From: Planctomicrobium piriforme
GTDB lineage: Bacteria > Planctomycetota > Planctomycetia > Pirellulales > UBA1268
Assembly: GCA_945869735.1 (NCBI GenBank)
Contig: CAMBPQ010000002.1
Coordinates: 23,276-87,275 of the forward strand
Direction: 5' to 3'
Length of the DNA stretch: 64,000 nucleotides
Positions within the stretch are counted from its first letter, which is position 1. Each line of letters starts with the position of its first letter. The notes under the pieces are model-generated. The model ran no database searches, had not been told where the DNA came from, and saw only the letters and a list, made by a program, of their open reading frames with translations. Position numbers and translations under genes: made by a program. Shown here one piece after another: positions 2,348 through 50,630 of this stretch.

Positions 2348-2507
2348 TAGATCGCATTCGACTTCCGTGGAACGCCGGCTCGGGGGCGGCAAAAGTCTCG
2401 TCGCCGGGGCGCGGATACGCCCCAGGCTCCTCGAGCGTTCGCCGACCCCCGTGCCTCCCTCCTCCAAGCTGCCATCTCGCCGCTCCACCAAAGGCAGATG
2501 CGCTCGA
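2348..2507 (+). mobile_element. MITE-like structured repeat, module A copy 1 (160 bp)
   Basis: Ends TAGATCGCATT...GATGCGCTCGA; core CGCCGGCTCGGGGGCGGCAAAAGTCTCGTCGCCGGGGCG...CTCCTCGAGCGTTCGCCGACCCCC recurs at six other intergenic sites. Confidence 0.8.
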
Positions 2508-2538
2508 GCCGGCGTCTCCCACCCGCGCCGGCTGCGGG

Positions 2539-4542
2539 TCACGACTCCGACGCAGCCGCCAAGCGAAGCGCCGCAAGCTCACGGGCGAAGCCGCCCGAGA
2601 GAATCGGGAACCGGCACCAGGTCTTGGGATCGAGGTTCTGGTCGTCGAGATGGAAGGACGGTGCGTATCGCTCTCGCTTCCACTGGTTGCGGCTCCAGAG
2701 CGTAAAGAAGCGTTCCGTCCAGATGGCCAGCAGTTTCGCGTCATGCCCCGGAAATTCGTGCCGCAGACGGTGCCACGCCTCGAGGGGCGTCTGCTTGTCG
2801 CGGATGGCAGCCCGCTCGATCGCATCGAGCACGTCGTAGGGCATGAGGTCGGCCTCGTCGGTCTGACCAGACGCTCTCGGCCGCAGCTCCGCCGTCGGGG
2901 CCTGCACGTTGACCGCGGCGAGCGCGGGGATCGGGCCGACTCCCTCGGGGCCCGTCTGTTCCAGCCACCGCAGCCACCGCCGCAGGTAGGCCTTGTCGAT
3001 GCCAGCGATCGGAGCGATGCCGCCGGAGGTGTCGCCGTCCATGGTCGCGTAACCCACCGCCGCCTCGGAGCGGTTACTCGTCGAGACCAACAGGGCACCG
3101 GTGATGTTGGCGAGCATCCACACGCCCGGAGAGCGGACCCTTGCCTGGATATTCTGCAGGGCGACATCGTCGCGCTGCCACGTGAGTGGCCGGCCCACGG
3201 CACCGGTGACGATCTTCTCGTAGCCGCGGACGAGCGGCTCCACGTCGAACTCATGAAAGACCGCGCCGAGTGCCACCGCCAGGCTACGGGCCGCGTGTCG
3301 CGTGACGTCTCCCGAGTTGGCCGTCGACTGGTAGACGCAGGTCAGCGCCGTTTCCACGAGCGACCGCACGTCGGTGTCGGCGGCCCCTGCTACCGGCGAC
3401 AGGCCCATGCGGGCCGCCGCGGCCGGCAGCGTTAGTTCGGAGACGGCCAGCCGGACGGCGATCGCCGCCAGACAGGCCACGGCGGAAGAATCCGCACCGC
3501 CGCTCGCCGAGACGACGAAGCCCCGAGCGCGGCTTTTCCGCATGTAATCAAAGAGCCCGAGCGACACGGCTCTGGCAAACTCCTCCTCTTTGACATGCTG
3601 CCCTCGCTCCCAGGCGTCCCGGGCGTCATGCCCTGCGTCTTCTGAGGAGCCCGAGGCAGCGGGGGGCGTGAACGCCACCGCGACGCGGTCGCCTTCGGCC
3701 GCGTCCGGCACCGCCTCCACTGCAAGCCGCGCCTGCGCGAGCCGCAGAGCGTCGAGATCGACGACCGCGGTGGTCAACGCATGGTCGGTGAAGGAAAACC
3801 GACGGCCCGAGGCGAGCATCCTGCCGGCCGCCGCGACCATCACGCCGCCGTCGTAGACAGCGCGGCCTGCTTCGTTGCCCACGAGGTTCGCATAGACGTA
3901 GGCCGATGCGAATGCGCGGGATCCGTCTACGACAAACCGGCGGCGGATCTCATCCTTACCGAAGGCGAAGTGGCTCGCGGACGGATTGAGGATCACGTCG
4001 ATCCCGCGGGCCGTGAGCACAGCCCCCGGTCGATCGGCCACCCAGGCATCCTCGCAGATCTCGAAGCCGATGCGGACACCTCCGCAATCGAACCGCAGGT
4101 CGCCGATGGGCACGTCGCGGCCACCGAGAGACAGCGTGCCGCGGCGACCGCGGTGCCAGGGCCGGAACCACCGCGGCTCATAATGAATGCCGTCGCCCGC
4201 AAGATTCTGCTTGCAGGCGATGCCGGCGATCTGGCCGTCAGCCACCACGGCGGCGGCATCATACAGACCGCTTTCGAATCGCACGGGCAGCCCCACCGCC
4301 ACGATCATGCCGGCCGTGTGGGGCACGATCTCCCCGAGCACGTCGACGGCGAGCCGCTGCACGCCGGGGGATTGAAAGGCATCCTCGCAGCCGTAGCCCG
4401 TGATGCAGAGTTCGGGGAGGCAGAGGATGGAGACTCGGGCGTCACTCGCGGCCCGGATGGCTGCGATGATCCGGTCGCGGTTGCCGTCCCAGTCGAGCGG
4501 CGTCTGGTTGAGGGCCGAGCCGCCGACGCGGATCAGGTGCAT
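2539..4542 (-). CDS. nadE: Glutamine-dependent NAD+ synthetase
   Basis: N-terminal CN-hydrolase domain (PELCITGY, CKQNL, EICED) plus synthetase domain (SGGADS, NIQARVR, NRSEAAVGYATMDGD). Confidence 0.95.
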   Translation of the reverse strand: MHLIRVGGSALNQTPLDWDGNRDRIIAAIRAASDARVSILCLPELCITGYGCEDAFQSPGVQRLAVDVLGEIVPHTAGMIVAVGLPVRFESGLYDAAAVVADGQIAGIACKQNLAGDGIHYEPRWFRPWHRGRRGTLSLGGRDVPIGDLRFDCGGVRIGFEICEDAWVADRPGAVLTARGIDVILNPSASHFAFGKDEIRRRFVVDGSRAFASAYVYANLVGNEAGRAVYDGGVMVAAAGRMLASGRRFSFTDHALTTAVVDLDALRLAQARLAVEAVPDAAEGDRVAVAFTPPAASGSSEDAGHDARDAWERGQHVKEEEFARAVSLGLFDYMRKSRARGFVVSASGGADSSAVACLAAIAVRLAVSELTLPAAAARMGLSPVAGAADTDVRSLVETALTCVYQSTANSGDVTRHAARSLAVALGAVFHEFDVEPLVRGYEKIVTGAVGRPLTWQRDDVALQNIQARVRSPGVWMLANITGALLVSTSNRSEAAVGYATMDGDTSGGIAPIAGIDKAYLRRWLRWLEQTGPEGVGPIPALAAVNVQAPTAELRPRASGQTDEADLMPYDVLDAIERAAIRDKQTPLEAWHRLRHEFPGHDAKLLAIWTERFFTLWSRNQWKRERYAPSFHLDDQNLDPKTWCRFPILSGGFARELAALRLAAASES

Positions 4543-4554
4543 GGAGTTGGGCCG

Positions 4555-6477
4555 TCACCCCTGCGACGGTTCCTCGAGATAGGTGTAGCCCCCCAGCCCC
4601 TCCTCATAGAACTTGAGAAACCGGCCGGCCTGACTGTCACAGATGCGGCCCTCGCGGACCGCCTGCTCGATCGAGTCACGGAGCCGCTGAACGAGCTGGT
4701 TGGAGTCAAACTCGACATAGTCGAGCACCTCGCGGACGGTGTCGCCCTTGATCACGGCGTCGACCACCACCTCACCTCGTTCGTCGGTGCTGACGTGCAC
4801 TGCGTTGGTGTCGCCGAACAGATTGTGGAGGTCGCCGAGGATCTCCTGGTAGGCACCGATCAGGAAGGCTCCCAGGTAATACGGCTCGTGCTGCCAGGCG
4901 TGGAGTGGCAGCGTCCGCTTGACGTCGCGACGATCGATGAACTGATCGATCTTGCCGTCGGAATCACACGTCACGTCGCCGATCACGGCCGCCCGGGCCG
5001 GCCGCTCGTTGAGGCGATGGATCGGCATCACCGGAAAGAGTTGCTTGATGGCCCAGCTATCTGGAATCGACTGAAAGAGGGAGAAGTTGCAGAAATACGT
5101 GTCGGAGAGCGAGGCCTGCAGGCCCTCGAGTTCCTCGGGAACGAAGTCCAGGGTCTTCGTCAGCTTGTAAATGCGGCGGCAGATGGCCCAGTAGAGATTC
5201 TCGACCGCGGATCGCTGATCGAGCGGCAGGTAGCCGCTCGAAAACAGGTTCATCGCCGTGTCGAGCGACTGCTGTGAGTCGTGATAACTCTCGAGCAAAT
5301 TCCGCACGTTGATGTTTTGGTAGGTCTCCCAGAGGTCGTGCAGCGGCTGCTCGGCGTCGGACGGCGGCTCCGTCACGTCGCCCATGCCCCCCTGCTCCGA
5401 CACGCCTAGCACGCCGAAGATCAGCATGCTGTGGTAGGCGACGACGGCCCGGCCGCTTTCGGAAATGATCGTGGGATGCGGGACGCCCGCTTCGTCACAG
5501 GCGTTTTTCACGTGGTAGACCACGTCGTTGGCATATTCCTGCAGGCTGTAGTTGACGCTCGACTCGAAGTTGGTCTGGGAGCCGTCGTAGTCGACACCGA
5601 GGCCGCCGCCGACGTCGAGGTAGCGAAGACCGGCCCCCCGCTTGACGAGCTCCGTATAGATGCGCGACGCCTCGTTGAGGGCGGCCTTGATGTGACGGAT
5701 GTTGGTGATCTGGCTGCCTTGATGGAAGTGCAGGAGTTGCAGGCAGTCTTCCATCCCTCGGGCGGCCAGCAGATCGAGCCCCTTCACCAGTTCGCTTGCC
5801 GTCAGGCCGAACTTGGAACGAAACCCGCCGGACGACTGCCAGCGGCCGCTGCCACGCGTAGCCAGCTTGACCCGCATGCCGATCCGCGGCCGTACACCGA
5901 GTTTCTCGGCGTACTCGAGCACCAGGTGCAGCTCCGAAAAGCGTTCCACGACCGGGATGATCCGCCGCCCAATCTTCTGGGCAAGCATGGCCGTCTCGAT
6001 AAACTCCGCGTCCTTGAAGCCGTTGCAGATAATCGGTGTGTCGTTGTCGGCCAGAGCGATCACGGCCAAGAGTTCTGGCTTGCTGCCGGCCTCGAGGCCG
6101 AAGCGATACGGTTTGCCGAACCGCAGCACCTCCTCCACCACCTGTCGCTGCTGGTTGACCTTCACCGGATAGACGCAGCAGTAGTCGCCGCGATACCCGC
6201 TTTCCTTCATCGCGCTGGCGAACACGCCGTTGATCTCCCCCAGCCGATGCTGGAGGATCTCCGCGAAACGGAGGAGAATGGGCAAATCGATGCCCCGAAC
6301 TTGCAGCCGGTCGACCAACTGCTTGAGGTCGATGCTCTTCGTCGGATCCTTGTCGGGATGGACGAGCAGGTTCCCGTTGGGCCCCACCGAAAAGTAGCCA
6401 TTGCCCCAGCGTGCGACCTCGTACAGGTCGGCGGCATCCGCCGTGGTCCAATGCTCGAGATCGAGGTCAACCGCCAT
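4555..6477 (-). CDS. speA: Biosynthetic arginine decarboxylase
   Basis: YPVKVNQ PLP lysine, GLEAGSKPEL, HFHQGSQI, DVGGGLGVDY, TCDSDGKID; ATG at 6477 preferred. Confidence 0.95.
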   Translation of the reverse strand: MAVDLDLEHWTTADAADLYEVARWGNGYFSVGPNGNLLVHPDKDPTKSIDLKQLVDRLQVRGIDLPILLRFAEILQHRLGEINGVFASAMKESGYRGDYCCVYPVKVNQQRQVVEEVLRFGKPYRFGLEAGSKPELLAVIALADNDTPIICNGFKDAEFIETAMLAQKIGRRIIPVVERFSELHLVLEYAEKLGVRPRIGMRVKLATRGSGRWQSSGGFRSKFGLTASELVKGLDLLAARGMEDCLQLLHFHQGSQITNIRHIKAALNEASRIYTELVKRGAGLRYLDVGGGLGVDYDGSQTNFESSVNYSLQEYANDVVYHVKNACDEAGVPHPTIISESGRAVVAYHSMLIFGVLGVSEQGGMGDVTEPPSDAEQPLHDLWETYQNINVRNLLESYHDSQQSLDTAMNLFSSGYLPLDQRSAVENLYWAICRRIYKLTKTLDFVPEELEGLQASLSDTYFCNFSLFQSIPDSWAIKQLFPVMPIHRLNERPARAAVIGDVTCDSDGKIDQFIDRRDVKRTLPLHAWQHEPYYLGAFLIGAYQEILGDLHNLFGDTNAVHVSTDERGEVVVDAVIKGDTVREVLDYVEFDSNQLVQRLRDSIEQAVREGRICDSQAGRFLKFYEEGLGGYTYLEEPSQG

Positions 6478-6617
6478 GCCTACCCCAATCGGGGAACCGA
6501 GCCGCGCGTGGTCACCGTCGACGCGACGGGCCCACAGCAGCAACTGCTTGTCAGCAGTGTAGCGTCAGCCGCCGCCGAGGCCATGCCAATCCTCGGCGCC
6601 GAGGCCGCCGCGGAGCT

Positions 6618-8102
6618 TCAGACGCGGACCCGCGTCCACCCGGGCCGCGCAAAGATTGCGAGCATCGCGACTCCGCGGGCCGTAAGGTCCGCCGCCATCG
6701 CGAGCCACGCGCCGTAGGCCCCCAGCCCGAGGCCCCGCACGCTCCCGAGCCCGACCGGCAGCGGCACCACGTCCCACGCGAGAACCATCGCCAGCGGCAG
6801 ACGGATGGCGACCAATCCAAGGAAGTTGACGAGCATGGGTGGGCGGGTCGCGCCGCCGCCGCGCAGGCCACCCGAGAGGACCATCAACAGGGCCAGAGGC
6901 GGCTGGGCGAAGGCCACGATCCGGACGAGTGAAGCCGCGAGTCCGGCGACGGGCGATCCGGCCGTGGAGCCGCCGACGAACCACCTGGCGAGTGGCTCCG
7001 CACACCAGAAGAAGATTACTCCGGCGGCCGTCATCAGCGACACACACGCCAGCGCCGCGAGCCAGACACTTCCGCGGGCCCGACGTTCGTCGCGTGCCCC
7101 GAGAAACTGCCCGGCGAGCGTCGCCGCCGCCACCTGAAAAGCACTGCCCGGCAGAAACGCGAGCGACTCGATCGTGACTGCCACGGCGTGAGCCGCCGCA
7201 TCGACGTTGCCCAGGCGGTTGACGATCGAGAGGAAGGTGAGGTGGCAGGCCGCATTGGCGACCGCGTCGACGCCGGCGGGCAGTCCCACACGGGTGATGC
7301 GTCGCAGCCACGACGCGTCTGGCCGCCAATCGCCGGGCAGCGGCCGAAGCCCCCGCCGCTTTCGCGACAGCAGCGCGACAACGCAAACCGCGCCGCAGCC
7401 GTAGCCCGCGAGCGTGCCCCATGCGAGACCATCCCAACCGAGCCGTGGGAGGCCCCACAGCCCGGTGCCGAGGGCGAAACTGGCAGCCGCATTGACGACG
7501 TTCACCACGGACATGGCGATGAGCCCTGCCACCATGTCGCCTGCCCCCCGGAGGCTCGCGACGCCGATGGCGATCACCATCATCGCGGGCAGCGCGGGCA
7601 TCACGATCCCCAGGTACCGCGTCGCGAGCAGGCTACTCTCTGCCGGCAGGCCGAGCATGGACACGATCCGGCTGCCCTGCAGGCTCACCAGCAGCACGAC
7701 GGCAAGCGTTAGCACGGCGGCGACGAGAAAACTCTGCGCTATCGCCCGCCTGGCACCTTGCATGTCGCCGGCTCCGACCCGGCGGGCGACGAGGGCTGTC
7801 GCTGCGACGGCCGGCAAAGTGAAGGCAACGGGAACGAAGGCGAGGCAGTAGGCGACGAGCCCCACCGCTGCCAGCGGTTCGGCGCCCGTGAAGAGATTGC
7901 CCGCGATCCACTTGTCGACGAATCCCACCGTGAGCGCGAGCACCTGCTCGAGCAACACGGGGACTACCAGCCGCACGAGGGGCCGGAGCGTGCCTGCTGC
8001 ACCATGAACCACAGCCGCCGGCGGGTCATCCAGCGACACCACGGCTAAAGCGTATCCGCTTGCGGGAGAGCGGCGAGATGGCACCTTGGAAGAGGGAGGC
8101 AA
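6618..8102 (-). CDS. MATE family efflux transporter
   Basis: About 12 TM segments in two repeats; LRGAGD...N and LRGGGATR motifs; true start uncertain (possibly ~8041) because the ORF start lies inside a repeat. Confidence 0.88.
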   Translation of the reverse strand: MPPSSKVPSRRSPASGYALAVVSLDDPPAAVVHGAAGTLRPLVRLVVPVLLEQVLALTVGFVDKWIAGNLFTGAEPLAAVGLVAYCLAFVPVAFTLPAVAATALVARRVGAGDMQGARRAIAQSFLVAAVLTLAVVLLVSLQGSRIVSMLGLPAESSLLATRYLGIVMPALPAMMVIAIGVASLRGAGDMVAGLIAMSVVNVVNAAASFALGTGLWGLPRLGWDGLAWGTLAGYGCGAVCVVALLSRKRRGLRPLPGDWRPDASWLRRITRVGLPAGVDAVANAACHLTFLSIVNRLGNVDAAAHAVAVTIESLAFLPGSAFQVAAATLAGQFLGARDERRARGSVWLAALACVSLMTAAGVIFFWCAEPLARWFVGGSTAGSPVAGLAASLVRIVAFAQPPLALLMVLSGGLRGGGATRPPMLVNFLGLVAIRLPLAMVLAWDVVPLPVGLGSVRGLGLGAYGAWLAMAADLTARGVAMLAIFARPGWTRVRV

Positions 8103-8115
8103 GGGGGTCGGCGAT
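8046..8115 (-). mobile_element. Module A copy 2 (3' half only)
   Basis: Minus strand CGCCGACCCCCTTGCCTCCCTCTTCCAAGGTGCCATCTCGCCGCTC...GGATACGCTTTA aligns to the 3' half of copy 1. Confidence 0.7.
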
Positions 8116-8140
8116 ACCCCATCGAGCCCGCTCCCGGCAC

Positions 8141-9418
8141 TCAGGCGAAGAGTTCCTTGATCACCTTACCGGAGTTGGCGATCTTCATCGGCCGACCGTT
8201 CTTGGCCGTGAAGGTCGTCTCAAGTGAGACGCCGAGCGACTTGAGCACGCTGGCCATCAGGTCCTGCGACGAGTAGGCCTCGGACACCACTTCCTTACCG
8301 TCAGAACTCGTCTCACCGACCACGACACCCCGCTTGAAGCCGCCGCCACCAACGACGACGCTCCAGCTGCGGGCCCAATGGTCGCGGCCGCCGCCCCCAT
8401 TGATGTTCGGAGTGCGGCTGAACTCACCCATCCACATGACCACCGTGTCGTCGAGCATGCCGCGGTCAGCCAAATCAGCCACGAGGGCGCTCATCGCCTG
8501 ATCGAGCATGGGCAGTTTTTGGTCCTGCAGCGTCGGAAAGATGTTGGCGTGGTTGTCCCAGCCTCCGAGATCGACCTCAACGAACGGCACCCCCGCCTCA
8601 ACCAGCCTGCGGGCCATCAGGCAGCCGCGGCCAAAGCCGCTTGCGCCGTACTTCTCCTGGATGTCCTTGGGCTCCTTCATCACCTTGAAGGCGTCCATCT
8701 GCGGACTCGTCATGAGCTTGACCGTCTTGTCGAGCACCTTGGCGTGATCATCAGCAGACGCACCGCGACGCTCGCCGATAAACCGTTTCTCGATGGTGGC
8801 CAGCATTTCCATCCGCTGCGCGAGCCTCGCCGGATCGACGCCCATCTCAAGGTTGCGGACGTTGCCGTTGGAGTCGACGACAAACGGTGACCAGGTCATG
8901 CCCAGAAAACCCGGCCCCACGCTACCGCCCCCCACCGACACGAACGGCGGAATCTCGAGATTCGGCACCTGATCGGCCAGCTCGTGGGAAATCACGGCGC
9001 CGTAACTTGGATGCTCAACATTGGGGTTGGGGACGTAGCCGGTGTGCATGTAGTACCGACCCCGCATGTGGTCGGCCTCGCGCGTGCTCATCGACCGGAC
9101 GATCGCCATGTGATGCATCTGCTTCGCCATGAGCGGCATGTGCTCACAGATGGCGACGCCGTCGGCACTGGTCGAGATCTGCTTGAACGGCCCGCCGGTC
9201 GGGGCGCCTGGCTTGAGGTCCCAGATGTCCATGCTGCTCGGCCCGCCCCCCATCCACAGCATGATCGCGGCCTTGTGCCGCTTCTTCATGTCGGTGGCAT
9301 TGGCGAGGATCGAGTTGGTGAATGCGGTCGCCGGGGCAGCGAGCGCGGCGGCCCCCGCCATGTGGTTCATGAAATGGCGGCGGCTCATGCCGTCCGGAAC
9401 ATCGATGAAGCGGGCCAT
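8141..9418 (-). CDS. DUF1501 family protein with Tat-like signal
   Basis: SRRHF twin-Arg, LWMGGGPSSMDIWDLKP, GWDNH, MGEFSRTP, GRDHW. Confidence 0.9.
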   Translation of the reverse strand: MARFIDVPDGMSRRHFMNHMAGAAALAAPATAFTNSILANATDMKKRHKAAIMLWMGGGPSSMDIWDLKPGAPTGGPFKQISTSADGVAICEHMPLMAKQMHHMAIVRSMSTREADHMRGRYYMHTGYVPNPNVEHPSYGAVISHELADQVPNLEIPPFVSVGGGSVGPGFLGMTWSPFVVDSNGNVRNLEMGVDPARLAQRMEMLATIEKRFIGERRGASADDHAKVLDKTVKLMTSPQMDAFKVMKEPKDIQEKYGASGFGRGCLMARRLVEAGVPFVEVDLGGWDNHANIFPTLQDQKLPMLDQAMSALVADLADRGMLDDTVVMWMGEFSRTPNINGGGGRDHWARSWSVVVGGGGFKRGVVVGETSSDGKEVVSEAYSSQDLMASVLKSLGVSLETTFTAKNGRPMKIANSGKVIKELFA

Positions 9419-9545
9419 AGCGGAGACTCCTGAGGGCTGGCGAGGTGGAAATCGCCAATGAAATCGTCGGTTAAAGTATGGTTTATTCCCAACCCGACCG
9501 CCAGCCCGGGGTCGGTCTCAAAAACCTGAAAACCAGCCGGCTATC

Positions 9546-9569
9546 GCGAATGCCGCCGGCGGCATTCGC
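9546..9569. repeat. Perfect 24-bp palindrome directly after the DUF1549/1553 stop codon
   Basis: GCGAATGCCGCC GGCGGCATTCGC. Confidence 0.8.
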
Positions 9570-11344: not shown

Positions 11345-11503
11345 CCAGGCCCCCATCGGCGCCTGAGGCGGCGAGAAGGTACCTCGGAGATGGTAGGCAA
11401 GAGGGTCGGCGAACGCTTGAGGAGCGCCTGAGCCGCCGCGGCCCTCAGCGACGAGACCTTGCCGCCCCCGAGCCGGCGATACCCATAATCCGAAGAACTT
11501 GAG
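11345..11503 (-). mobile_element. Module A copy 3 (variant middle hairpin)
   Basis: Minus strand TATCGCCGGCTCGGGGGCGGCAAGGTCTCGTCGCT...GCTCCTCAAGCGTTCGCCGACCCTC; ends degenerate. Confidence 0.7.
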
Positions 11504-15169: not shown

Positions 15170-15329
15170 TAGAGCGGATCTGCCTTCGGTGGAGCGGCAC
15201 GATGGCGGCGTCAAGGACGTAGACGAGGGGGTCGGCGACCGCTCGAGGAGCCTTGGGCGTATCCTCGCCCCGGCGACGAGAATTTTGCCGCCCCCGAACC
15301 GGCGATACACCACAGTCGAATGCGCTTGA
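15170..15329 (-). mobile_element. Module A copy 4 (160 bp), between map and the alpha-operon promoter
   Basis: Minus strand TCAAGCGCATTCG...GGCAGATCCGCTCTA; near-identical core to copy 1. Confidence 0.8.
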
Positions 15330-15345: not shown

Positions 15346-16167
15346 TCACGCGGCCGATCCGGCGGGATCCAGTTTCTCATCGGCGGAGGGGGGGGCGGTG
15401 AGCACCTTCGGACCGCTTTCCGTGATGGCCACGGTGTGCTCGAAATGGGCGCTGGGCCGGCCGTCCACGGTCGACTGGGTCCAGTAATCCTGGAGCGCCC
15501 GCACTTTTTTCGACCCCATGTTCACCATCGGCTCCACCGCGATCACCAACCCTGGCTCCAGTTCAAAGTCATGGTTTTTGCGAAACGCCGGCGTGCAAAA
15601 GTTTGGCACCTGCGGGTCCTCGTGCATGGTGCGGCCGATGCCGTGCCCCACGAAGTTCTCGACAACAGAGAATCCGTGGTCCCGCACGAATCTCGCCATC
15701 TCGGTGGCCACGTCGCTCCAGCGACTCCGACTGGCCATCAGTTCGATCGCCAGGCCCAGCACGCCCGCCGTGCAGTCGAGCAACCGTTGAACGTCGGCTT
15801 CAACCTCGCCAACGGGATGCGTGACGGCTGAGTCACCGCACCAGCCGCCGACGCTGCAGCCGGTATCGATGCTGACCACGTCTCCCGGCCGCAGTTGCCT
15901 TGGCCCCGGGATCCCGTGCACGACCTCGTCGTTGACCGAGATGCAGCACACCGCCGGAAACGGCACCTTACCGGGAACACCCTTGAAGAGCGGCACGGCG
16001 CCGTGATCGAGAAAGAACTTCTCCACGGCGGCATCGATCTCGCCCGTCGTCACACCGGGCTTGACCATCGACCTGGCAAGTTGGTGGGCGCCCCAGACAA
16101 CGAGACCGGAACGGCGCATCATCGCGATTTCACGCGGAGACCGAAGATTCACCACGACAGCACTCAC
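15346..16167 (-). CDS. map: Methionine aminopeptidase type I
   Basis: [36 protein letters not shown]; start approximate. Confidence 0.96.
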
Positions 16168-16251
16168 CGGAGGACGGGAAAGGGAACGACCCAAGTCTTC
16201 GAAGTATACCGCCGGGATGTGCCCGGGCGACCGCTCACCAAAGACCTATCA

Positions 16252-38600: not shown

Positions 38601-39036
38601 GAGAGCGCATTCGACTTACGTGGATCGCCGGCTCGGGGGCGACAAAAGTCGCTGCTGCGCGGTCCTGCGGATTGTGGCTGGGGCGAGGATACGCCCCAGG
38701 CTCCTCGAGCGTTCGCCGACCCCCTCACCTCCCGTCAGGAAGTCCCAAGCGCAAGCGCGGGGAATCCGGGAAGCATCGATTTGATACCGGATTGGTTCAC
38801 CGGCGGTGACATGCTCGCCGCCGGAGGATTTTGCTACAGGATGCTCGGGTGGCCGACTGGGGAATATCTCGTGAGTCGCAAAGATTCCCCGGCGTCTGCG
38901 CGTGCCCCCGACCGGCTCCTCACGATCAAGAATCGGTTCGATCATCCGTGCGGCTTGCCTCCCGTCAGGAAGCCCCAAGCACAACCGCGGGGAATGCGGG
39001 TAGCACCCCGCCCCGCTCCACAGCTGATGCGATCCA
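38601..39036 (+). mobile_element. Composite element: module A copy 5 interrupted by a REP-flanked module B
   Basis: A left part 38601-38732; REP 38731-38765; B core ~38775-38935; REP 38961-38995; A-like right end CCGCTCCAC...GATGCGATCCA to 39036. Confidence 0.72.
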
Positions 39037-39929: not shown

Positions 39930-41045
39930 GTGACCACGATCCGCGTTCATTTGCCCGGCACCGCCGCGGCCTCAGATCTCGCGAACGACCGCTCGTATGA
40001 CATCGTCTGCGGCGGCGGAACACTCCGTTCGATCGGTGGGCTGGTTCGCGATGCCGGGGGCCGGCGCGCGGTCGTTGTCAGCGACGCGGCGGTGGTCACG
40101 ACCCATGCAGCCCAGGTCCTCGCCTCGCTCGTAACCGCCGGTGTCGACGCCGCCCTTCTCGAGGTGCCGTCCGGAGAAGCGTCAAAATCGATCGATGCCG
40201 CGGGCTGCCTCTGGAACGAGTTCGCCCGGCAGGCCGTCGATCGCGACACCCACGTCGTCGCCGTGGGTGGTGGCGTGGTCGGAGACCTCGCCGGGTTTGT
40301 GGCTGCCACGTTCGCCCGCGGTCTATCCGTCTGGCAGGTGCCGACCACGCTCGTGGCCCAAGTCGACAGCGCCATCGGCGGGAAAACAGGGATCAATCTC
40401 GAATCGGGCAAAAATCTAGTGGGGGTGTTCTGGCAGCCCCGTGGGGTTGTCGCCGACATCGACACGCTGGCAACGCTGCCGCCACGGGAGTTTATCAGCG
40501 GGCTTGCCGAGGTGGTGAAGTACGGAATGATCATCGATGCCGCGTTTTTCGCCTGGCTCGAGGAGCATGCGGCGGCCATATTGGCTCGGGAATCAGCCGC
40601 CCTCACGCATGCTGTTGAGCGGTCGGCCGCCATCAAAGCCGACGTCGTCGGACGCGACGAGCGGGAAATATCGGGGCTGCGGGCCGCGCTCAACTACGGC
40701 CACACCTTTGCGCACGCCTACGAGACGGCGGCTGGGTTTGGCACGCTCCTGCATGGTGAAGCGGTGGCCATCGGCATGGCACGGGCCGCCCGTCTTGCGG
40801 AACGGCTGGGCAGGCTCTCGCACGACGTCGTAGCCCGTCAGGACGCGTTGCTCCGCCTGCTTCAGCTCCCCGTCGCGCCGCCCGCGGGCCTCCACGACGC
40901 CGCACCGCTGATCGCGATCATGGGCCGAGACAAGAAGACGGTGGGCGGGAAACTGAGGTTCGTGCTTCCCAGCCGGATCGGGCACGTAGAACTCGTGGAC
41001 GGCGTGCCGGACGACGTCGTCCACGCCGTTCTACAGCAGGCGTAG
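39930..41045 (+). CDS. aroB: 3-dehydroquinate synthase
   Basis: GGGVVGDLAGF, PTTLVAQVDSAIGGKTGIN, EVVKYG, LNYGHTFAH, HGEAVAIG. Confidence 0.96.
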   Translation: MTTIRVHLPGTAAASDLANDRSYDIVCGGGTLRSIGGLVRDAGGRRAVVVSDAAVVTTHAAQVLASLVTAGVDAALLEVPSGEASKSIDAAGCLWNEFARQAVDRDTHVVAVGGGVVGDLAGFVAATFARGLSVWQVPTTLVAQVDSAIGGKTGINLESGKNLVGVFWQPRGVVADIDTLATLPPREFISGLAEVVKYGMIIDAAFFAWLEEHAAAILARESAALTHAVERSAAIKADVVGRDEREISGLRAALNYGHTFAHAYETAAGFGTLLHGEAVAIGMARAARLAERLGRLSHDVVARQDALLRLLQLPVAPPAGLHDAAPLIAIMGRDKKTVGGKLRFVLPSRIGHVELVDGVPDDVVHAVLQQA

Positions 41046-41160
41046 AGCGGGTCTGGCTGACGTGGAGCGTTGGTTCGGGGGCGGCAAAAGTCTCGTCGCT
41101 CTATCGCCGCGGCGGCCCGACGCTCCTCGAGCGTTCGCCGACCCCCTCGCCTCCCTCAAC
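41043..41160 (+). mobile_element. Module A copy 6, left end coincides with the aroB TAG stop
   Basis: TAGAGCG, 11 nt, CGTGG...GGTTCGGGGGCGGCAAAAGTCTCGTCGC...CTCCTCGAGCGTTCGCCGACCCCC; right end not recognisable. Confidence 0.75.
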
Positions 41161-41193
41161 CGGTTTCCCCTCCCCGACGCGAGTGGTTGAGCG

Positions 41194-42393: not shown

Positions 42394-42417
42394 CAACATT
42401 CTCGAGGTCTTCAAATC

Positions 42418-42912: not shown

Positions 42913-42996
42913 GCCTGCCCGTCGATGCAGGTTCGGCATCAAAGCTGTCGTCGCAGCAGTCTGAAGAGTGCTCGCATCCGGCCCAAGATGGACACT

Positions 42997-43257: not shown

Positions 43258-43308
43258 TCCCGACGCGGGTTTCGGTCCGCCAATCATGGGGATTCTGATC
43301 GCGACGGA

Positions 43309-45198
43309 ATGACGATGAAGACACGGGGGCGGAACTCACGGCACGGGCTTGCCTGGGGGAATCAGCGCCCCGCAGGCCGAGATCTCTTTCGGTTCTTGCT
43401 CGTCGTGGTGGGGGTCGCAGCGGTTCTTGTCCCTCGGGCTCATGCCATCGTCAGTAGCAACACCGGTGCGTCACCGCCGTTTACAGGCACGGTGATCAAC
43501 TACCAGGTCGGGGCAGGCACCTTCTACGATCTTGGCTTTTTCGGCGGCCGGGCCACCGTCGCCAACATCGAGGCGGGCGCGATCTGGAACGGCCACGAGA
43601 CGCTTGCAGGCCGGGTCTCCCAGTACCTGGCCGATCCGGCCATCGTCGACACCGGCACGACGCAACTCGGCCAGCTCGACTGGCACGCCACGATGGTCGG
43701 CCAAACGATCGGTGGGGCCGGCCAGCTGTATTTCCATCAGGCCGGCATCGCTCCCGCGGCGCAGCTCTGGTCTGCCTCCATCGCCACCCAATGGCTCGCT
43801 TCGGGCACCGCCGAGTTCGTCGGCGGCTTCGATATCACCGACCAGAGCTTTTTTTACGCCTACACCAAAGCGATGCGGAACGGCGTCGTCTCCGGCAGCG
43901 CAACGCTCCGCGCCAGCGTCGTCAACAGCAGCTGGGGCAACAGCGGCGACTCCGCCGGCAACAGCCGCTACACGATCGCGATCGACGCGCTCGCCCTCGA
44001 GGACAACGTGGTCACGGTCGTCGCGGCCGGTAACTCCGGCCCCATGGCTAACACCGTGGGCGGGCCCGCGACGGGCTACAACGTGATCGCGGCCGCGGCC
44101 CTGACCGGCGACCAGACCGTTCCGGTCTATTCGCAGGTGGCGGATTTCTCCAGCCGGGGCCCGAGCGACTTCTTCAATCCCGTCTCGGGAACCATGATCC
44201 CTGGTGTCCGCCCCACGGTCGACATCACGGCGCCCGGCGACGACCTCACGCTCGCTTTCTACGGCGGCCTGACCGGCGGCCGCCTCTCCGGGACGGCCGT
44301 GACAGGCACGGCTTTTTACATTCCCAACATGGACGGCACGAGCTTTTCGGCCCCGATCGTCGCAGGCGCCGCGGCGTTGATGGTGGACGCCGGCACGTTA
44401 TTCGTCGACGGCGGTGCCGCAAGCAGTGAGATGCTCGACGCCCGTGTCATCAAGGCGGCCATGCTCACGGCCGCCCGTGCGCCCACGGGCTGGAACAACG
44501 GGCAGTCAACAGTGGGGGGCGTGGTGACGACGACACAGGCTCTCGACTACGCCAGCGGCGCCGGCATTCTCGACCTCGACACCGCGTATCGTGTGTACTT
44601 GGGTGATCCCGCGGCGGTCACGATCGATGGCATCACCTACATCGAAGCCGGCATCAACACAACGCTCGGTGTGTTGGGATCGGCGGGCGGCAGCGGGCTC
44701 AAGCACCGCGGCTGGGATCTGGGCAGTGTGCTCAACAGCGGGACATGGGGGGCCGGCGGCACCAACGTCTACTCCTTCGGCACGCCGCTTACCGCCGGCG
44801 ACACGCTCACCGCCGCGCTCACCTGGTTCGCCGACCGCACGCTCGGCAGCTCTCTCACGTCGGCCGTCGACGTGGCCCTCAGCAACCTCGTGCTCGAGGT
44901 TTGGCGGAGCGACGGACTCAGTGGCGATGCGCTGGTAGCCCAGTCCAACGCGACCTACAGCACCACGGAGTTTCTCCGCTTTGCAGTGCCGGAGACGGGC
45001 ACCTACAGCATGCGGGTCGTGGGGCTCGACCAGATCTACAATGTCGCCCCCACGCCCGACACCAGCACGGCCTACGCGCTGGCATGGCAGGCGGTGCCCG
45101 TGCCCGAACCGGCGCCACTGGTCCTCGCGGGCATCGCCCTCGTGGCAGTGGCCACTCGATGGCGGGGAAGAAAGCGATCCAGCAGCGACACGGCGTGA
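43309..45198 (+). CDS. S8 (subtilisin-like) serine peptidase with PEP-CTERM sorting signal
   Basis: NIEAG, DWHAT, AAGNSG, GTSFSAP; C-terminal VPEP + TM + basic tail. Confidence 0.88.
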   Translation: MTMKTRGRNSRHGLAWGNQRPAGRDLFRFLLVVVGVAAVLVPRAHAIVSSNTGASPPFTGTVINYQVGAGTFYDLGFFGGRATVANIEAGAIWNGHETLAGRVSQYLADPAIVDTGTTQLGQLDWHATMVGQTIGGAGQLYFHQAGIAPAAQLWSASIATQWLASGTAEFVGGFDITDQSFFYAYTKAMRNGVVSGSATLRASVVNSSWGNSGDSAGNSRYTIAIDALALEDNVVTVVAAGNSGPMANTVGGPATGYNVIAAAALTGDQTVPVYSQVADFSSRGPSDFFNPVSGTMIPGVRPTVDITAPGDDLTLAFYGGLTGGRLSGTAVTGTAFYIPNMDGTSFSAPIVAGAAALMVDAGTLFVDGGAASSEMLDARVIKAAMLTAARAPTGWNNGQSTVGGVVTTTQALDYASGAGILDLDTAYRVYLGDPAAVTIDGITYIEAGINTTLGVLGSAGGSGLKHRGWDLGSVLNSGTWGAGGTNVYSFGTPLTAGDTLTAALTWFADRTLGSSLTSAVDVALSNLVLEVWRSDGLSGDALVAQSNATYSTTEFLRFAVPETGTYSMRVVGLDQIYNVAPTPDTSTAYALAWQAVPVPEPAPLVLAGIALVAVATRWRGRKRSSSDTA

Positions 45199-45210
45199 CG
45201 CGTCGCCGGG

Positions 45211-46551
45211 TTACCAGCGGCCCTCGATGGCCAGGCCCCCCATGTCGGCCGTCGGCATGGGAACGACGCGAACCTCCATCCCGGCGAAGTGCATCTCTGT
45301 CATGTTCACCGCCCGCGAACTCGCCCACGCCAGATACCAGCCAAGGAACACCTGCGATGGATAGTGGGCGTTGTCGGTCATCCGGGAAAAGCCGACGAAC
45401 GTCGAGCAGACGTAAAGCGTGCCCTTGAGCAGCGGGCTCTCCACCATCTCGGCGGCGGCGAGGAATGGGACCGCGCCAATAAAGGCGTGGCCACTCACGC
45501 CGTTGTTGTCGTTGAAGAAATGCCACTGGCTGCCGACACCGTCGGACGGACGCGAGGCCCCGGTCGCGAGCTGCAGCACATAGACCGGTGGCCCACCCAC
45601 GACGAACATCCGCAGCGACCGCGAGCCCCACTCGCCGACGACGTCTCCCGCGGGGTTGCCCTCAAACACCAGCCCCGTCGCCGCCGCGACTCCGAAAATC
45701 GGCAGGAGGTACCGCCCCTCACCGATGTCCTTGCAGTCCGAAAAGAAGGTGCCCACGCTCGTCGGCTCCACGCCTCGCTGCCAGGCGCCCTGCATCGTAT
45801 CGTCGAAGCCGGTGTTGGCCATCAAAGCCCCTGCGCCGAACGCGGCCGACAGGCAGACGAGGCTGTCGCAGGAGTAGAAGTTACGGTAGTCCTCGAGCAC
45901 CTGATATCCCACCCGAGCCGTGCGGGGAAAACGGCTCCGCGACCACGGGAGTTCTGGTGGCGGCGACGCGAGCAACTCCTCGCGGTCGAGCGGTGGCAGG
46001 GCGTAGATAGGCTCGGCCGCCGGTGACATCTGGGCGGCCAACTCAACGGTGACGCTCTCGGCATCTGGTTCGGTCTGCCAATCGCCAACCAGTTCGATCC
46101 CCTGCCCCCCGGCTGCCGAGCCCGAGAGTTTCTGCGTCTCCACGACCGCGGCGATCCACGCCCCTGTGGTGGCGGGTACGACGCGGACCACCACCCGCTG
46201 CCGGCGAGGCGGCCATGACTCGAGCAGGGAGCCAGGCGGCTCGACCCACGCTGACTCGATCCGCCCCTCACGGGGCGGCGTGGCGAGGAAGTCGGGCTCC
46301 ACGGCCCGCGTCACCGGCCACTCGGCCGACACCGTGGCGAGCGTCCGCCGCCAGAGTTGCATGCCATCGGCTGCCGGCAGGAACATGCCGGCGGCATCCT
46401 CGGCGCGCAGCGTCGCCGGGGCGAACAGCGCCAGCACCAGAGCCGTCCAAACAAGGCTCTTGCTGAGGGTTCGCCACACCGACACGGATGTGGGGTCGAG
46501 GGAAGAGTTCATGAGCGGCGGAACTCTCCCAGCCGCGCAGGCCGGGGGCAA
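45211..46551 (-). CDS. PAP2-like phosphatase with extra N-terminal exported domain
   Basis: ASRP, VSGHAF, FSRMTDNAHYPSQV; probable start ATG 46512. Confidence 0.75.
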   Translation of the reverse strand: MPPACAAGRVPPLMNSSLDPTSVSVWRTLSKSLVWTALVLALFAPATLRAEDAAGMFLPAADGMQLWRRTLATVSAEWPVTRAVEPDFLATPPREGRIESAWVEPPGSLLESWPPRRQRVVVRVVPATTGAWIAAVVETQKLSGSAAGGQGIELVGDWQTEPDAESVTVELAAQMSPAAEPIYALPPLDREELLASPPPELPWSRSRFPRTARVGYQVLEDYRNFYSCDSLVCLSAAFGAGALMANTGFDDTMQGAWQRGVEPTSVGTFFSDCKDIGEGRYLLPIFGVAAATGLVFEGNPAGDVVGEWGSRSLRMFVVGGPPVYVLQLATGASRPSDGVGSQWHFFNDNNGVSGHAFIGAVPFLAAAEMVESPLLKGTLYVCSTFVGFSRMTDNAHYPSQVFLGWYLAWASSRAVNMTEMHFAGMEVRVVPMPTADMGGLAIEGRW

Positions 46552-46658
46552 GCCTGGTTTCCCCTGTCAAAGCGGGGGAGCCGGGAAGCCCGGGCGAGCA
46601 TGCTCCCGCACCCTGCTGCCGGCCGCAGTCGCGACGGCCGCGCAAACGTCGCTCTCGC

Positions 46659-47325
46659 TCAGGGACTCGTGGGGCCCGATTGGTGCGGGCCTGTCGAGAC
46701 GGAGTCGATCCTTCCATCCTCCATGGAGGCGATCCGCTGGATGAGCTCCATCGTGATCCGCCCATTCTCGGCATCGAGGGCGCTGGTCGGCTCATCGCAG
46801 ACCAGCAGCCGCGGCGAGTGGACGAGCGCCCGGGCAATCGCGACCCGCGACCGCCTCCAGCCCGCGATCAACAGCGGGACAGCCGCATTTTCCACCGCCG
46901 TCAGGCTGGCAGGAGGTTGTACGACTGGAAGACGAAGCCCACGTTGTCGCGGCGGAAGCGGACTTTCGCCGCTTTGCGCATGGCAACGAGGTCACGCCCA
47001 AGGACGACGACGTCGCCAGCCAACGGTTCCAGCGTGCCGGCGACGATCGAGACCAGCGTCGTCTTGCCGCAGCCGCTCGGCCCGACGAGCATCAGCATCT
47101 CGCCATAGGGGACGTCGAGGTCGAGGGCGGGAGAAGGGCCCTGCACGTCAGCCACGGCTCGTCCCCCTTCAGCCGCGGAACACAATGGCGGGATCGACGA
47201 CCAGCACCTTGCGGATCGACAGCAGACTCGCCAGGAGCACGATCAGGAGCACCTGCCACGGCATGAAGAAGGAGAGCCCGGTCAAGATGCCTTCTGGAGC
47301 GCCCACGAGCGTGGCGGGCCCTTCA
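46659..47325 (-). pseudogene. Remnant of a DevA/LolD-type ABC ATPase and a DevC-type permease
   Basis: GPSGCGKTT...VFQSYNLLPA, then a frameshift near 46903; RVAIARAL...DEPTSALD with no LSGGQ and no H-loop; upstream SQIRDI joined to a LLSIRKVLVVDPAIVFRG C-terminus. Confidence 0.8.
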
Positions 47326-47461
47326 ATGTCGCGGATCTGGCTGATGGTGAGCGACATCCCGTGGGCACACTCACCAACCCCCGGAAAACCGTGGCCGAAA
47401 ACATGGCCTGAGCCAGGCTCTGGTATCCTGTGGCCCCGCGAAGCCAGAGGAAGGTGCAGCC

Positions 47462-49342
47462 GTGCCGAATCAAGCCGGGACCGAAGCCGGTCCGAACGAC
47501 GCCACGATCGTCGACGATGCACGGATCACGGAGGTGCTCTCGCGATGGTGGGGCTTCGACCACCTTCGGCCGCTCCAGTCCGAGGCCATCAAGGCCGCCC
47601 TCGAGGGGCGTGACTCGCTGGTCGTGATGCCGACGGGCGGGGGCAAAAGCCTCTGCTACCAGCTGCCGCCGCTGGTGGGTGAATCGACCGACGTCGTGAT
47701 CTCGCCGCTGGTCGCGCTGATGAAGGACCAGGTCGACGCGCTCGAGGCGATCGGCTACCCAGCCGCGGCGCTCCACGGCGGGATGTCGCAGGAGGAACGG
47801 GCGGACGTTCGCGACCGTCTGGCGGCTGGGGAGCTCCGGCTGCTCTTCGCCGCGCCCGAACGGCTGGTAAACACGGGCCTCCTCGACGTGCTCGCCCGCG
47901 TCGGCGTGAAACGGTTCGCGATCGACGAGGCCCACTGCATCAGCCACTGGGGGCACGACTTCCGTCCGGAATACCGGCAGCTTGCCCTCCTCCGCGACCG
48001 CTTTCCCTCGGCCAGCATCCACGCCTTTACCGCCACCGCCACGCCGCGCGTCCGCGATGACATCGCCCGCCAACTCAGCCTCCGCGATCCGGCCACGCTC
48101 GTGGGCACGTTCGACCGGCCGAATCTCGTCTATCGGGTCGTGCCCCGGACCGACCGCATTGCGCAGACGCTGGCGATCCTCGGCCGGCATAAGGGGGAGG
48201 CCTCGATCGTCTACTGCATCTCGCGCAAAGAAACGGAGCGGCTCGCCGAGCGGCTCGCGGCCGATGGCATCTTGGCCCAGCCCTACCATGCCGGCCTCGA
48301 TCCACGGCAGCGGCACAAGACCCAGGAGGCGTTCGCCCGCGAGACGATCGACGTGGTGGTCGCCACCGTCGCCTTTGGTATGGGGATCGACCGCTCCGAC
48401 GTTCGCCTGGTGCTGCACACGTCGCTCCCCAAGAGCCTGGAGGCCTACCAGCAGGAGACCGGCCGCGCCGGCCGCGACGGGCTCGCCGCCGAATGCGTGC
48501 TCCTCTATTCGTCGGCCGACGTCTTCAGTTGGGAGTCGCTCGTTCGCAAGAGCGCCGCGGAGTCGGATCTCGACCCCGAAGAGCAGGAGCGGCTCATCGC
48601 CTCCCAGGCGGAACACCTGCACGCGATGCGCCGCTATGCGCAGGCCGCCCGCTGCCGCCATGCGGCCCTCTCGGAATATTTCGGCCAGGCGTATCCCGGC
48701 GAAACCTGCGGGGCCTGCGATGTGTGCCTCGGTGAGACCGAGAGCCTCCCCGACGCAGCGGTCATAGCCCAGAAGATCATCTCGTGCGTGGCCCGCGTGC
48801 AGGAACGGTTCGGCGTCCGCCACGTCTGCGAGGTGCTCCGGGGCGCGAAGACAGACGGCATTCTCCGCCACGGCCACGACCAACTTTCCACCTTCGGCCT
48901 ACTCGTATCGCTCGACCAACGGGCGGCGGAAAACCTCGTCCATCAACTCCTCGATCAGGAGCTGCTCTCCCGAACCGGCGGCGATCGCCCGGTCGTCACG
49001 CTCAACGACCGCTCCTGGGAGGTTCTGCGAGGACAGCGGTCCGTGATGCTGCTGGAGCCACGGGCCGGCAAGACGGCGAAGACAACGAAGGCCGACGCTG
49101 ACGATTGGCAAGGCGTGGATCGCGACCTGTTCGAGCGGCTGCGAAAGTGGCGCCGGCGGATCGCCGAGGCCCGCGGCAAGCCCGCCTGGACGATCCTCGA
49201 CGACAAGGCGCTGCGGGCAATCGCGCGGGAAAAACCCGCCTCGCCCGCCGCCCTGCTCCGCTGCAAGGGTATCGGCGAGAAACGGCTGGCCGATTTTGGT
49301 GATGACATTCTCAATCTCGTCAACGGACGTGACGACGGGTAA
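47462..49342 (+). CDS. recQ: ATP-dependent DNA helicase RecQ with HRDC domain
   Basis: MPTGGGKSLCYQ, DEAHCISHWGHDFRP, QETGRAGRDG, C-terminal Cys cluster, HRDC. Confidence 0.97.
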   Translation: MPNQAGTEAGPNDATIVDDARITEVLSRWWGFDHLRPLQSEAIKAALEGRDSLVVMPTGGGKSLCYQLPPLVGESTDVVISPLVALMKDQVDALEAIGYPAAALHGGMSQEERADVRDRLAAGELRLLFAAPERLVNTGLLDVLARVGVKRFAIDEAHCISHWGHDFRPEYRQLALLRDRFPSASIHAFTATATPRVRDDIARQLSLRDPATLVGTFDRPNLVYRVVPRTDRIAQTLAILGRHKGEASIVYCISRKETERLAERLAADGILAQPYHAGLDPRQRHKTQEAFARETIDVVVATVAFGMGIDRSDVRLVLHTSLPKSLEAYQQETGRAGRDGLAAECVLLYSSADVFSWESLVRKSAAESDLDPEEQERLIASQAEHLHAMRRYAQAARCRHAALSEYFGQAYPGETCGACDVCLGETESLPDAAVIAQKIISCVARVQERFGVRHVCEVLRGAKTDGILRHGHDQLSTFGLLVSLDQRAAENLVHQLLDQELLSRTGGDRPVVTLNDRSWEVLRGQRSVMLLEPRAGKTAKTTKADADDWQGVDRDLFERLRKWRRRIAEARGKPAWTILDDKALRAIAREKPASPAALLRCKGIGEKRLADFGDDILNLVNGRDDG

Positions 49343-49397
49343 CCTGCTTGTCGGCGCGCGACCTTCGCCCGCTTTCTTCGCACTCCACGAGGTCTTC

Positions 49398-50474
49398 ATG
49401 TCCGCCATCACGTCCTCCCTGCACCATCTCGGCCAGAGTCTCTGGCTCGACAACATCACACGAACGATGCTCGATGACGGCACGCTCGCCCGTTACATCC
49501 GTGACCTCTCCGTGACCGGCCTGACGAGCAACCCCACGATCTACAACCTCGCAGTTAAGAACAGCACCGCCTACGACGCCGCGATCGCTGCGAAGGTGAA
49601 GCAGGGGCTTGCTGGCGAGCACCTCTTCTTCGAACTCGCCATCGAAGACCTTGTGCGGGCCGCCGACCTCTTCCGGCCGGTGTATGACCGCAGCGGTGGA
49701 CTCGACGGCTGGGTGTCGCTGGAGGTGTCGCCGCGGCTGGCGTACGACACGGCGAGCACACTGGCCGCCGCCCGCGATCTGCACGCGCGGGCAGCGCGAC
49801 CGAACCTGTTCATCAAGATCCCGGGCACCAAGGAGGGCCTGCCTGCCATCGAGGAGGCGATCGCCGCGGGCGTACCGGTGAACGTGACCCTGCTGTTCAC
49901 CCACGACCACTATCTTGCCGCGGCCGAGGCCTACCTGCGGGGCATCGAGCGGCGGATCGACGCGGGCCTCGACCCGCGGGTCTGCTCAGTGGCATCGCTC
50001 TTCATCAGCCGCTGGGATGGGGCCACGGCAAAGAGACTGCCCGCCGGTCTCGCCAACACGCTGGGCGTCGCCATCGGCGGCCAGACCTACGCCACCTACC
50101 GCGCGCTTTTGGCCGCGGACCGCTGGCAGCGGCTGGCCAACTTCGGGGCGCTGCCGCAACGGCTCCTGATGGCAAGCACAGGCACCAAGGATCCTACCCT
50201 CTGCGACTGTCTCTACGTACGGGACCTAGCCGCCCCGCACACGATCAACACGATGCCCGAAGCGACGCTCCTGGCGTTCGCCGATCATGGCACGCTCGGC
50301 GGCGTGCTCTCGTCAGGGGGCGGCACGAGCGGCCGCACGCTCTTCGACGTGTCGAGGGCCGGCGTCGATCTCACGGCCCTCGGCCACGACCTCCAGACGC
50401 AGGGTGCGGCGTCCTTCGTGAAGAGCTGGGACGAGCTCCTGCAGGTGATCGACGCCAAGGTGCAAGCTGCGTAG
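49398..50474 (+). CDS. tal: Transaldolase
   Basis: LWLDNI, GLTSNPTI, VSLEVSP, NLFIKIP, VNVTLLF, ASTGTK; GAGG + ATG at 49398. Confidence 0.94.
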   Translation: MSAITSSLHHLGQSLWLDNITRTMLDDGTLARYIRDLSVTGLTSNPTIYNLAVKNSTAYDAAIAAKVKQGLAGEHLFFELAIEDLVRAADLFRPVYDRSGGLDGWVSLEVSPRLAYDTASTLAAARDLHARAARPNLFIKIPGTKEGLPAIEEAIAAGVPVNVTLLFTHDHYLAAAEAYLRGIERRIDAGLDPRVCSVASLFISRWDGATAKRLPAGLANTLGVAIGGQTYATYRALLAADRWQRLANFGALPQRLLMASTGTKDPTLCDCLYVRDLAAPHTINTMPEATLLAFADHGTLGGVLSSGGGTSGRTLFDVSRAGVDLTALGHDLQTQGAASFVKSWDELLQVIDAKVQAA

Positions 50475-50630
50475 AGCGCATTGTGGATAGATGTATCGAC
50501 GAGTTGGTGACTCGGGCGAGGGAGGCAAGGGGGTCGGCGAACGCCCGAGGAGCCTTGGGCGGATCCTCGCCCCGGCGACGAGACTTTTGCCGCCCTCGAG
50601 CCGGCGATCCACGCACGTCAAAGCGATCTC
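50472..50630 (-). mobile_element. Module A copy 7 (159 bp), right end coincides with the tal TAG stop
   Basis: Minus strand GAGATCGC...GCTCGAGGGCGGCAAAAGTCTCGTCGCCGGGGCG...AATGCGCTCTA. Confidence 0.8.

Follow-up and report, generated by a model that had tools for sequence, protein, structure and literature searches.

Results

Copies of the repeat in a 64-kb stretch of a planctomycete genome

The stretch of DNA analysed here, referred to as the window, comprises 64,000 nucleotides (C2:23276-87275) of the 3.17-Mb assembly of a lake planctomycete (G000), a metagenome-assembled genome (MAG) of 66.7% GC in 128 contigs that is 95% complete. It carries seven copies of a short repeat, module A, which the original prediction regarded as a lineage-specific miniature inverted-repeat transposable element (MITE) with a structured core. 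According to the evidence presented below, the repeat is best explained, with high probability, as a non-autonomous MITE of the IS630 family with a conserved folded core.

A profile hidden Markov model (HMM) built from this genome's own copies recovered all seven predicted copies with offsets of only a few bases, and on direct reading the three complete ones (2348-2507, 15170-15329 and 50472-50630) corresponded to their earlier description. A 27-base core pattern matched three times within the window and not once in 100 shuffles. The full copy at 2348-2507 on the plus strand consists of TA (2348-2349), a 156-bp element (2350-2505) and GA (2506-2507), covers HMM positions 2-161 with 172 bits, and is located 31 nt downstream of the stop codon of gene 2539-4542 (minus strand), to which it is antisense. 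At the orthologous site in a sister species (G022:C261:5400-5960, locus L158) there are about 140 bp of unrelated sequence, so that this site is neither occupied by the element nor empty. The second full copy, 15170-15329 on the minus strand (profile span 15170-15328), reads TC, 156 bp (15327-15172) and TA. It begins 19 nt past the TGA stop of gene 15346-16194 (minus strand) in sense orientation, and G022, the closest relative, has an empty site (TTCG) at the orthologous position (locus L002). The third, at 50472-50630 on the minus strand (profile span 50473-50630), has a variant right arm, comprises 157 bp plus TA and lies between convergent genes; here, the TA at 50472-50473 and the terminal G of the element (50474) together form the TAG stop codon of gene 49296-50474 (plus strand).

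The remaining four copies are incomplete. At 8046-8194 (minus strand; HMM 13-161, 58 bits) a degraded copy has retained a clear right arm and right terminal repeat (8046-8115), while the left part is weak. The copy at 11365-11494 (minus strand; HMM 11-140, 84 bits) is without recognisable termini, and its core has the apical hairpin described below in the version GGGCCGC/GCGGCTC. The profile search and the gene context place a left terminal repeat and core without right arm at 41043-41162 on the plus strand, where the flanking TA and the first G of the element provide the TAG stop codon of gene 39930-41045 (plus strand). Finally, the plus-strand copy at 38601-38736 (HMM 2-116, 99 bits), a left terminal repeat and core belonging to a subfamily with a 21-nt insert, stops at CCTCCC and gives way there to another repeat (GTCAGGAAG.CCCAAGCGCAAGCGCGGGGAAT...). 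This second repeat family (...CGTCAGGAAGCCCCAAGCGCAAGCGCGGGGAAT...CCGCTCCACACCGCTG; 38733-39036 in the window) abuts or interrupts copies of module A, and it forms the left flank also at C10:64736, C14:23564, C41:13737, C67:8030, C8:10929, C94:210 and C98:6029. As at least eight module A copies have this left flank in common, such composite units seem to have been copied together.

Copy number, ends and distribution

Genome-wide searches yielded 274 merged BLAST loci and 241 nhmmer hits, 106 of which are full length; the latter hits cover 32,981 bp, equivalent to 1.04% of the genome. The repeat was predicted to occur in many copies throughout the genome, which is indeed the case: with 241-274 copies, one is found about every 12-13 kb as compared to about every 9 kb in the window. 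The consensus reads GAGCGCATTCGACTTACGTGG...CCACCAAAGGCAGATGCGCTC, preceded by CTA and followed by TAG. The element is small and non-coding, with a modal length of 156 bp that rises to 177 bp in a subfamily of about 46 copies, in which 21-23 nt (GCCGCTGCGCGGTCCTGCGGATT-like) are inserted after AAAAGTC in the core. The insert brings in a second GTCGCC motif and a further small hairpin.

The termini are imperfect inverted repeats of 24-26 bp (GAGCGCATTCGACTTACGTGGATCG... and ...CTCCACCAAAGGCAGATGCGCTC). For the 58 paired ends that were compared, the information content reaches zero at precisely the fourth base beyond GAGCGCAT...ATGCGCTC (-4 and +4). The end position is therefore conserved, and the defined ends proposed from the few copies of the window hold for the family as a whole. 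The same positions were inspected for a target duplication of greater and variable length outside CTA/TAG, and neither matching flanks nor any information beyond ±3 was seen.

An exact core 20-mer is present on more than 100 public contigs, nearly all of them from MAGs of freshwater Planctomycetota/Pirellulales. The element was detected in 23 of 25 genomes of the genus and in none of 16 genomes from the other families of the order, in agreement with the proposed lineage specificity. The window had no Rfam hit at gathering score (best permissive hits, E=4-8 with 12-13 bits), plasmid records contained no match to the repeat family, and a literature search returned no paper describing it.

Insertion at TA

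For 57 copies, the two 150-bp flanks were joined and searched against the closest relative, G022. Ten clean empty sites were identified, with 158 bp (156 + 2) more in the filled allele. The sequences at these empty sites are CTAG and TTAG (two each), CTAT, CTAA, CCAG (two), CTGA and TTCG, and TA is thus still present at six of the ten. Even with CTAA or CTAT as the empty site (loci L012 and L003), the filled copy begins with GAGCGC and, hence, the duplicated sequence is TA and not CTAG. Comparison of filled and empty sites therefore yields the 2-bp TA duplication expected of a MITE of the TA-targeting IS630/Tc1 type. TA within CTAG is also the reported preferred target of IS630 (Tenzen and Ohtsubo 1991, as cited in PMC2170065). 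The presence or absence of copies in sister species demonstrates past mobility only.

An IS630-family insertion sequence with matching ends

A search for IS630-type DDE domains recovered mere fragments from this genome but intact genes from congeners, and five of the congeneric loci (L125-L129, from five species) hold a 1013-bp insertion sequence (IS) of the IS630 family; intact or two-frame IS copies occur in the congeners G002, G007, G012, G024 and G043. This IS terminates in GAGCGCGTCTGACATAGGACTAGCG and GAGCGCGTCCGGCCTACGTGTAGCG. The MITE ends, GAGCGCATTCGACTTACGTGGATCG and GAGCGCATCTGCCTTTGGTGGAGCG, each agree with the right end of the IS at about 20 of their first 26 bases (~77%) and with its left end at 17 of 27. 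TA is present on both sides of the IS at four of the five loci (L125-L128), the right end of L129 being ambiguous, and the copy at L127 is flanked by CTA...TAA. The 308-aa transposase of L128 scores 184.5 bits against NF033545, 'IS630 family transposase' (NCBIfam, cut-off 100), and also matches PF13358 and PF01710. Thus, an autonomous transposase with matching ends, which the original prediction proposed to look for, is encoded by an IS630-family IS of congeners, which has near-identical terminal repeats and TA flanks. At L128 the transposase gene is a single frame of 324 codons. At L125-L127 and L129 (IS positions ~24-1000) it is split at the same place into two frames, a 151-aa helix-turn-helix part and a DDE part of 232-276 aa, and this two-frame arrangement may reflect a programmed -1 frameshift.

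The genome studied here contains the IS solely as deleted remnants (C26:1008-1501, C22:386-546, C11:15880-16020 and C24:11726-11958). The last of these, beside the MITE copy C24:11563-11731, is an internally deleted IS that has kept positions ~101-215 and 919-1009, and is possibly a snapshot of how short non-autonomous derivatives arise. The interior of the IS displays no similarity to the MITE core; used as a query, the IS matched only IS remnants in this genome. Within the same genome we also looked for a full-length element bounded by MITE ends, but the 26 candidate pairs, 300-5000 bp apart, turned out to be neighbouring MITEs. As only remnants of the IS remain, the copies in this genome are probably stranded.

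Position relative to genes

Genes were called by a simple procedure based on GC3 (2329 genes, 81% coverage). Copies reside between convergent, tandem and divergent genes in 79, 91 and 13 cases, respectively, as compared to 428, 1337 and 436 intergenic regions in the background. Between tandem genes, 43 copies are in sense and 48 in antisense orientation to the upstream gene. The terminus of the element overlaps the stop codon at 58 of 249 adjacent 3' gene ends, and 36 of the 241 copies overlapped open reading frames (ORFs) of the crude gene finder. CTAG is the most under-represented tetranucleotide of the genome (observed/expected 0.32, 819 sites), followed by TTAG/CTAA. Since CTAG and TTAG sites are rare and often lie on stop codons, copies accumulate at 3' gene ends in either orientation.

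Loss of the flanking TA dinucleotides

Among the 106 full copies, nine are flanked by TA on both sides (TA/TA), 66 on one side and 31 on neither. Under independence, 16.6 TA/TA copies would be expected (odds ratio 0.26, p=0.0023). The TA has been replaced by GA or TC in 92 cases and by transitions in 12, as opposed to 340 and 307 at internal A/T sites (p=3e-13). The latter figures mean that A:T-to-C:G transversions equal transitions in frequency inside the MITE copies, which is an unusual substitution spectrum in itself. Two orthologous copies differ between the sister species at one and the same flank, which reads GA in one and TC in the other; of TA dinucleotides in general, 31 of 45 in the flanks were kept. 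In other genomes, taken together, 17 of 24 full copies are TA/TA. All three copies of G007 and G016 belong to this class, and the IS is present in G007; G022 resembles the genome studied here (about 3 of 13).

Three explanations for the missing TAs were considered and rejected. Ordinary decay with age is insufficient, as the number of TA flanks does not follow divergence (rho -0.07, p=0.5) and the least diverged copies are already one TA short. Inheritance of the flanks from a master copy would lead to clustering by internal sequence, which was not observed (permutation p=0.32; the nearest neighbour shared the class in 4 of 106 cases, with 8.9 expected). Depletion of CTAG specific to this genome cannot account for the retention of TA/TA elsewhere because the depletion is equal, with an observed/expected ratio of 0.32 here and 0.31 in 670 kb of other genomes.

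We prefer to think that TA/TA copies were repeatedly excised while the transposase was active, and that the survivors would be those frozen by a change in the flank that blocks cleavage; on this reading, most of the present copies would have been immobilised by loss of one flanking TA. Alternatively, the changes may represent lesions set by the transposase at its own cleavage site, or a local mutational hotspot.

Fold of the core

Both strands of the consensus give stable folds (-76.9 and -85.5 kcal/mol, z about -4). The original prediction described a covarying three-way junction, with a closing stem and two hairpins, and all of the stem variants quoted in its support were found again (GCTCGGGG/CCTCGAGC, GCTCGAGG/CCTCGGGC, GTTCGGGG, and GGCGAC/GTCGCT at 38601). 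However, the fold of minimum energy is not this junction but a rod, in which G5CGGC pairs with GCCG-A-C5, CUCG with CGAG and GCC with GGC, in addition to an apical hairpin. The two folds are mutually exclusive, since both need GGGGGCGGC.

Occupancy of the pairs is similar for the two structures: in 121 distinct cores (49 loci from other genomes, the rest from this genome) about 91% of cells are paired in either fold, and the helices hardly vary. Considering this genome's copies, the values are 90.7% for the three-way junction and 90.9% for the rod. We therefore aligned 115 cores from other genomes by a model that uses sequence only and compared both folds with 500 shuffles. In this cross-species alignment, double-sided change was seen at 14 pairs of the rod (5.8 on average in shuffles, reached by 0/500), along with 34 further pair types (24.9 in shuffles, 0/500). 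The three-way junction (closing stem and second hairpin), in contrast, has five double-sided pairs as against 4.3 in shuffles (matched in 187 of the 500) and 18 further pair types as against 18.0 (313 of 500), with 87.6% of its cells paired. Changes at G36-G40 are compensated at C100-C104 in 16 cells, while the partner positions in the three-way fold, 84-86, account for two cells and many C-C clashes. Thus, the proposed three-way junction has no excess of compensation over shuffles, and the changes cited in its favour are one-sided and result in G.U or A-U pairs; it was rejected in favour of the rod. All that stands of it is the apical hairpin GGGCG/CGCCC, which is common to both folds. At least three versions of the apical stem exist (GGGCG-AGGAUA-CGCCC, GGGCCG-CGG-CGGCCC and CGCC-GCG-GCGG), all of which fold.

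Conservation of the core

In this genome, exact 20-mers of the core occur 101-130 times and those of the termini 5-20 times. Likewise, across species, positions ~25-57 and 78-106 are conserved to at least 90%, the ends to 50-70%. At about 30 loci in other genomes, the core is located directly between gene starts and stops without recognisable transposon ends. Four clean orthologous copies are shared with G022, in which 314 of 336 core positions, 78 of 95 positions of the right arm and 16 of 24 positions in the flanking trinucleotides are identical (core versus right arm, p=0.002; core versus flanking trinucleotides, p=0.0003), the mostly coding flanks being about 92% identical. It follows that the core of about 85 nt changes roughly one third as fast as the right arm.

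Discussion

The ends of the repeat, the 2-bp gain of TA and the corresponding IS of congeners lead to the following scenario. The transposase of the 1013-bp IS would mobilise the MITE in trans by way of the nearly identical ends, cutting it out and pasting it into TA, preferably within CTAG or TTAG, with duplication of the TA. Between its ends, the element carries some 85 nt of passenger sequence, the core, which has no relationship to the interior of the IS, would form an imperfect rod as a single strand, and would be kept under constraint after insertion. In the genome studied here, the cognate IS persists as fragments, and the roughly 250 MITE copies are probably relics.

Several observations weigh against this scenario. 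Today, TA is absent from four of the ten empty sites, and with just nine of the 106 copies being TA/TA the duplication would be invisible in this genome without the empty sites. The DDE-domain search identified no intact cognate transposase in this assembly, which is a 95%-complete MAG of a kind in which IS copies often fail to assemble. With regard to the core, the helices are nearly invariant and, consequently, the covariation comes from a few dozen cells; A.C mismatches and G.U pairs have similar frequencies, so that neither strand is favoured, nor RNA over DNA. Moreover, gene conversion between copies (concerted evolution) could mimic constraint on the core.

The original prediction left it open whether the structure of the repeat is under selection or needed for its spread. 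The core is constrained, as outlined above, and the first part is therefore retained. A role in transposition is unlikely, judging from the related element ISY100, in which the 24-bp repeats appear to be sufficient in cis and mini-transposons with 30 bp per end work like the full-length element (PMC2170065). If only the terminal repeats are needed in cis, as appears to be the case for ISY100, the core of module A would be dispensable for movement.

This leads to the question of whether the core, rather than the transposon, is the actual unit. It is possible, although we consider it rather unlikely, that the repeat is a functional module of freshwater Pirellulales (a structured RNA, a single-stranded DNA or a protein-binding site), for which the IS630 ends are a mere vehicle and whose cores are retained by the host, e.g., for processing, for stability or as a site for a nucleoid protein. 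The conservation of the core across species to at least 90% as opposed to 50-70% at the ends, its slow change in orthologous copies (about one third of the rate of the right arm), the solo cores that reside between genes without transposon ends, the compensatory changes in favour of the rod, and the apparent dispensability of the interior in ISY100 (PMC2170065) would all fit such a role. However, copies between tandem genes lack any bias in orientation (43 sense, 48 antisense), Rfam contains no match, the conservation of the sequence exceeds what pairing alone would demand, and gene conversion may be an alternative source of it. In addition, about 250 copies per 3-Mb genome are more typical of selfish spread.

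A further and still more doubtful variant combines both views: the core would be a domesticated module selected by the host (a structured RNA, a single-stranded DNA or a protein-recognition module) on IS630 ends, and the non-random loss of one flanking TA, in some cases independent in sister species at one and the same copy, would record the systematic immobilisation of useful copies. If this were true, excision would remove every copy that has stayed mobile, or else the transposase would mutate the flank in the course of its cleavage.

Two other classes of repeat have to be considered. REPs are palindromes of 20-40 bp with a GTAG/CGTC tag that are associated with RAYTs and have neither terminal inverted repeats nor a target duplication (PMC3733652). 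A REP/REPIN- or ERIC-like palindrome, owing its spread to recombination or to a tyrosine transposase of the RAYT type instead of a DDE transposase, would also be intergenic, highly folded and abundant, and would explain why a perfect target duplication is missing at most copies in this genome; yet the terminal inverted repeats of 24-26 bp that match those of an IS630-family IS, the precise gain of 158 bp at TA and the length of 156 bp, far beyond the 20-40 bp of REPs (PMC3733652), render this origin most improbable. The same applies to an IS1380- or IS5-type MITE of 154 bp (AGCGCAT...ATGCGCT) with a 4-bp CTAG duplication, which can be read from the consensus (AGCGC...GCGCT between two CTAGs) and equally amounts to 158 bp (154 + 4), but which has very little chance of being correct as the G following the left TA stays at the CTAA and CTAT targets (L012, L003) and hence belongs to the element, the IS copy at L127 is flanked by CTA...TAA, and the cognate transposase is of the IS630 family.

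As an IS630-family MITE, module A shares with IS630/ISY100 and with the 1013-bp IS the terminal repeats of 24-26 bp starting with GAGCGC, the TA duplication and the preference for CTAG. It differs from this IS in being devoid of a transposase, in its unrelated interior and in being about 50 times more abundant. Similar elements are known from other bacteria. The Correia elements (CREE/NEMIS) of Neisseria are abundant folded MITEs of about 100-155 bp with inverted repeats of about 26 bp and a TA duplication, which adjoin genes and affect transcripts. To our knowledge, no cognate transposase has been identified for them and no core is known to outlive the ends; no similarity in sequence would be expected between the two, and the family presented here is set apart by possessing both a cognate transposase and a core that outlasts the ends. 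RUP of Streptococcus pneumoniae, a 107-bp MITE that inserts at TA, probably depends for its movement on an IS630-family transposase acting in trans, that of IS630-Spn1. Module A is found in a different phylum and is different in sequence, and we know of no conserved passenger core of RUP that is common to many species. ERIC/IRU of enterobacteria is an imperfect palindrome of about 127 bp in transcribed intergenic regions whose conservation across species goes well beyond neutral expectation. We are not aware of a transposase partner or a clear target duplication for ERIC, both of which exist for the present family.

As a MITE, the element is routine; what is unusual is that the middle is much better preserved than the ends and that the loss of the flanking TAs is non-random. 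For the annotation of MAGs of freshwater Pirellulales, it has to be taken into account that the copies make up about 1% of the genome, break assemblies, rebuild stop codons and create spurious ORFs. The conserved passenger core is a candidate case of a transposon spreading a functional module, or being retained for one. If the state of the flanking TAs reflects survivorship, it would provide a means to separate frozen from mobile MITEs from sequence alone, and would predict which changes in the flanks block excision of the IS630 type.

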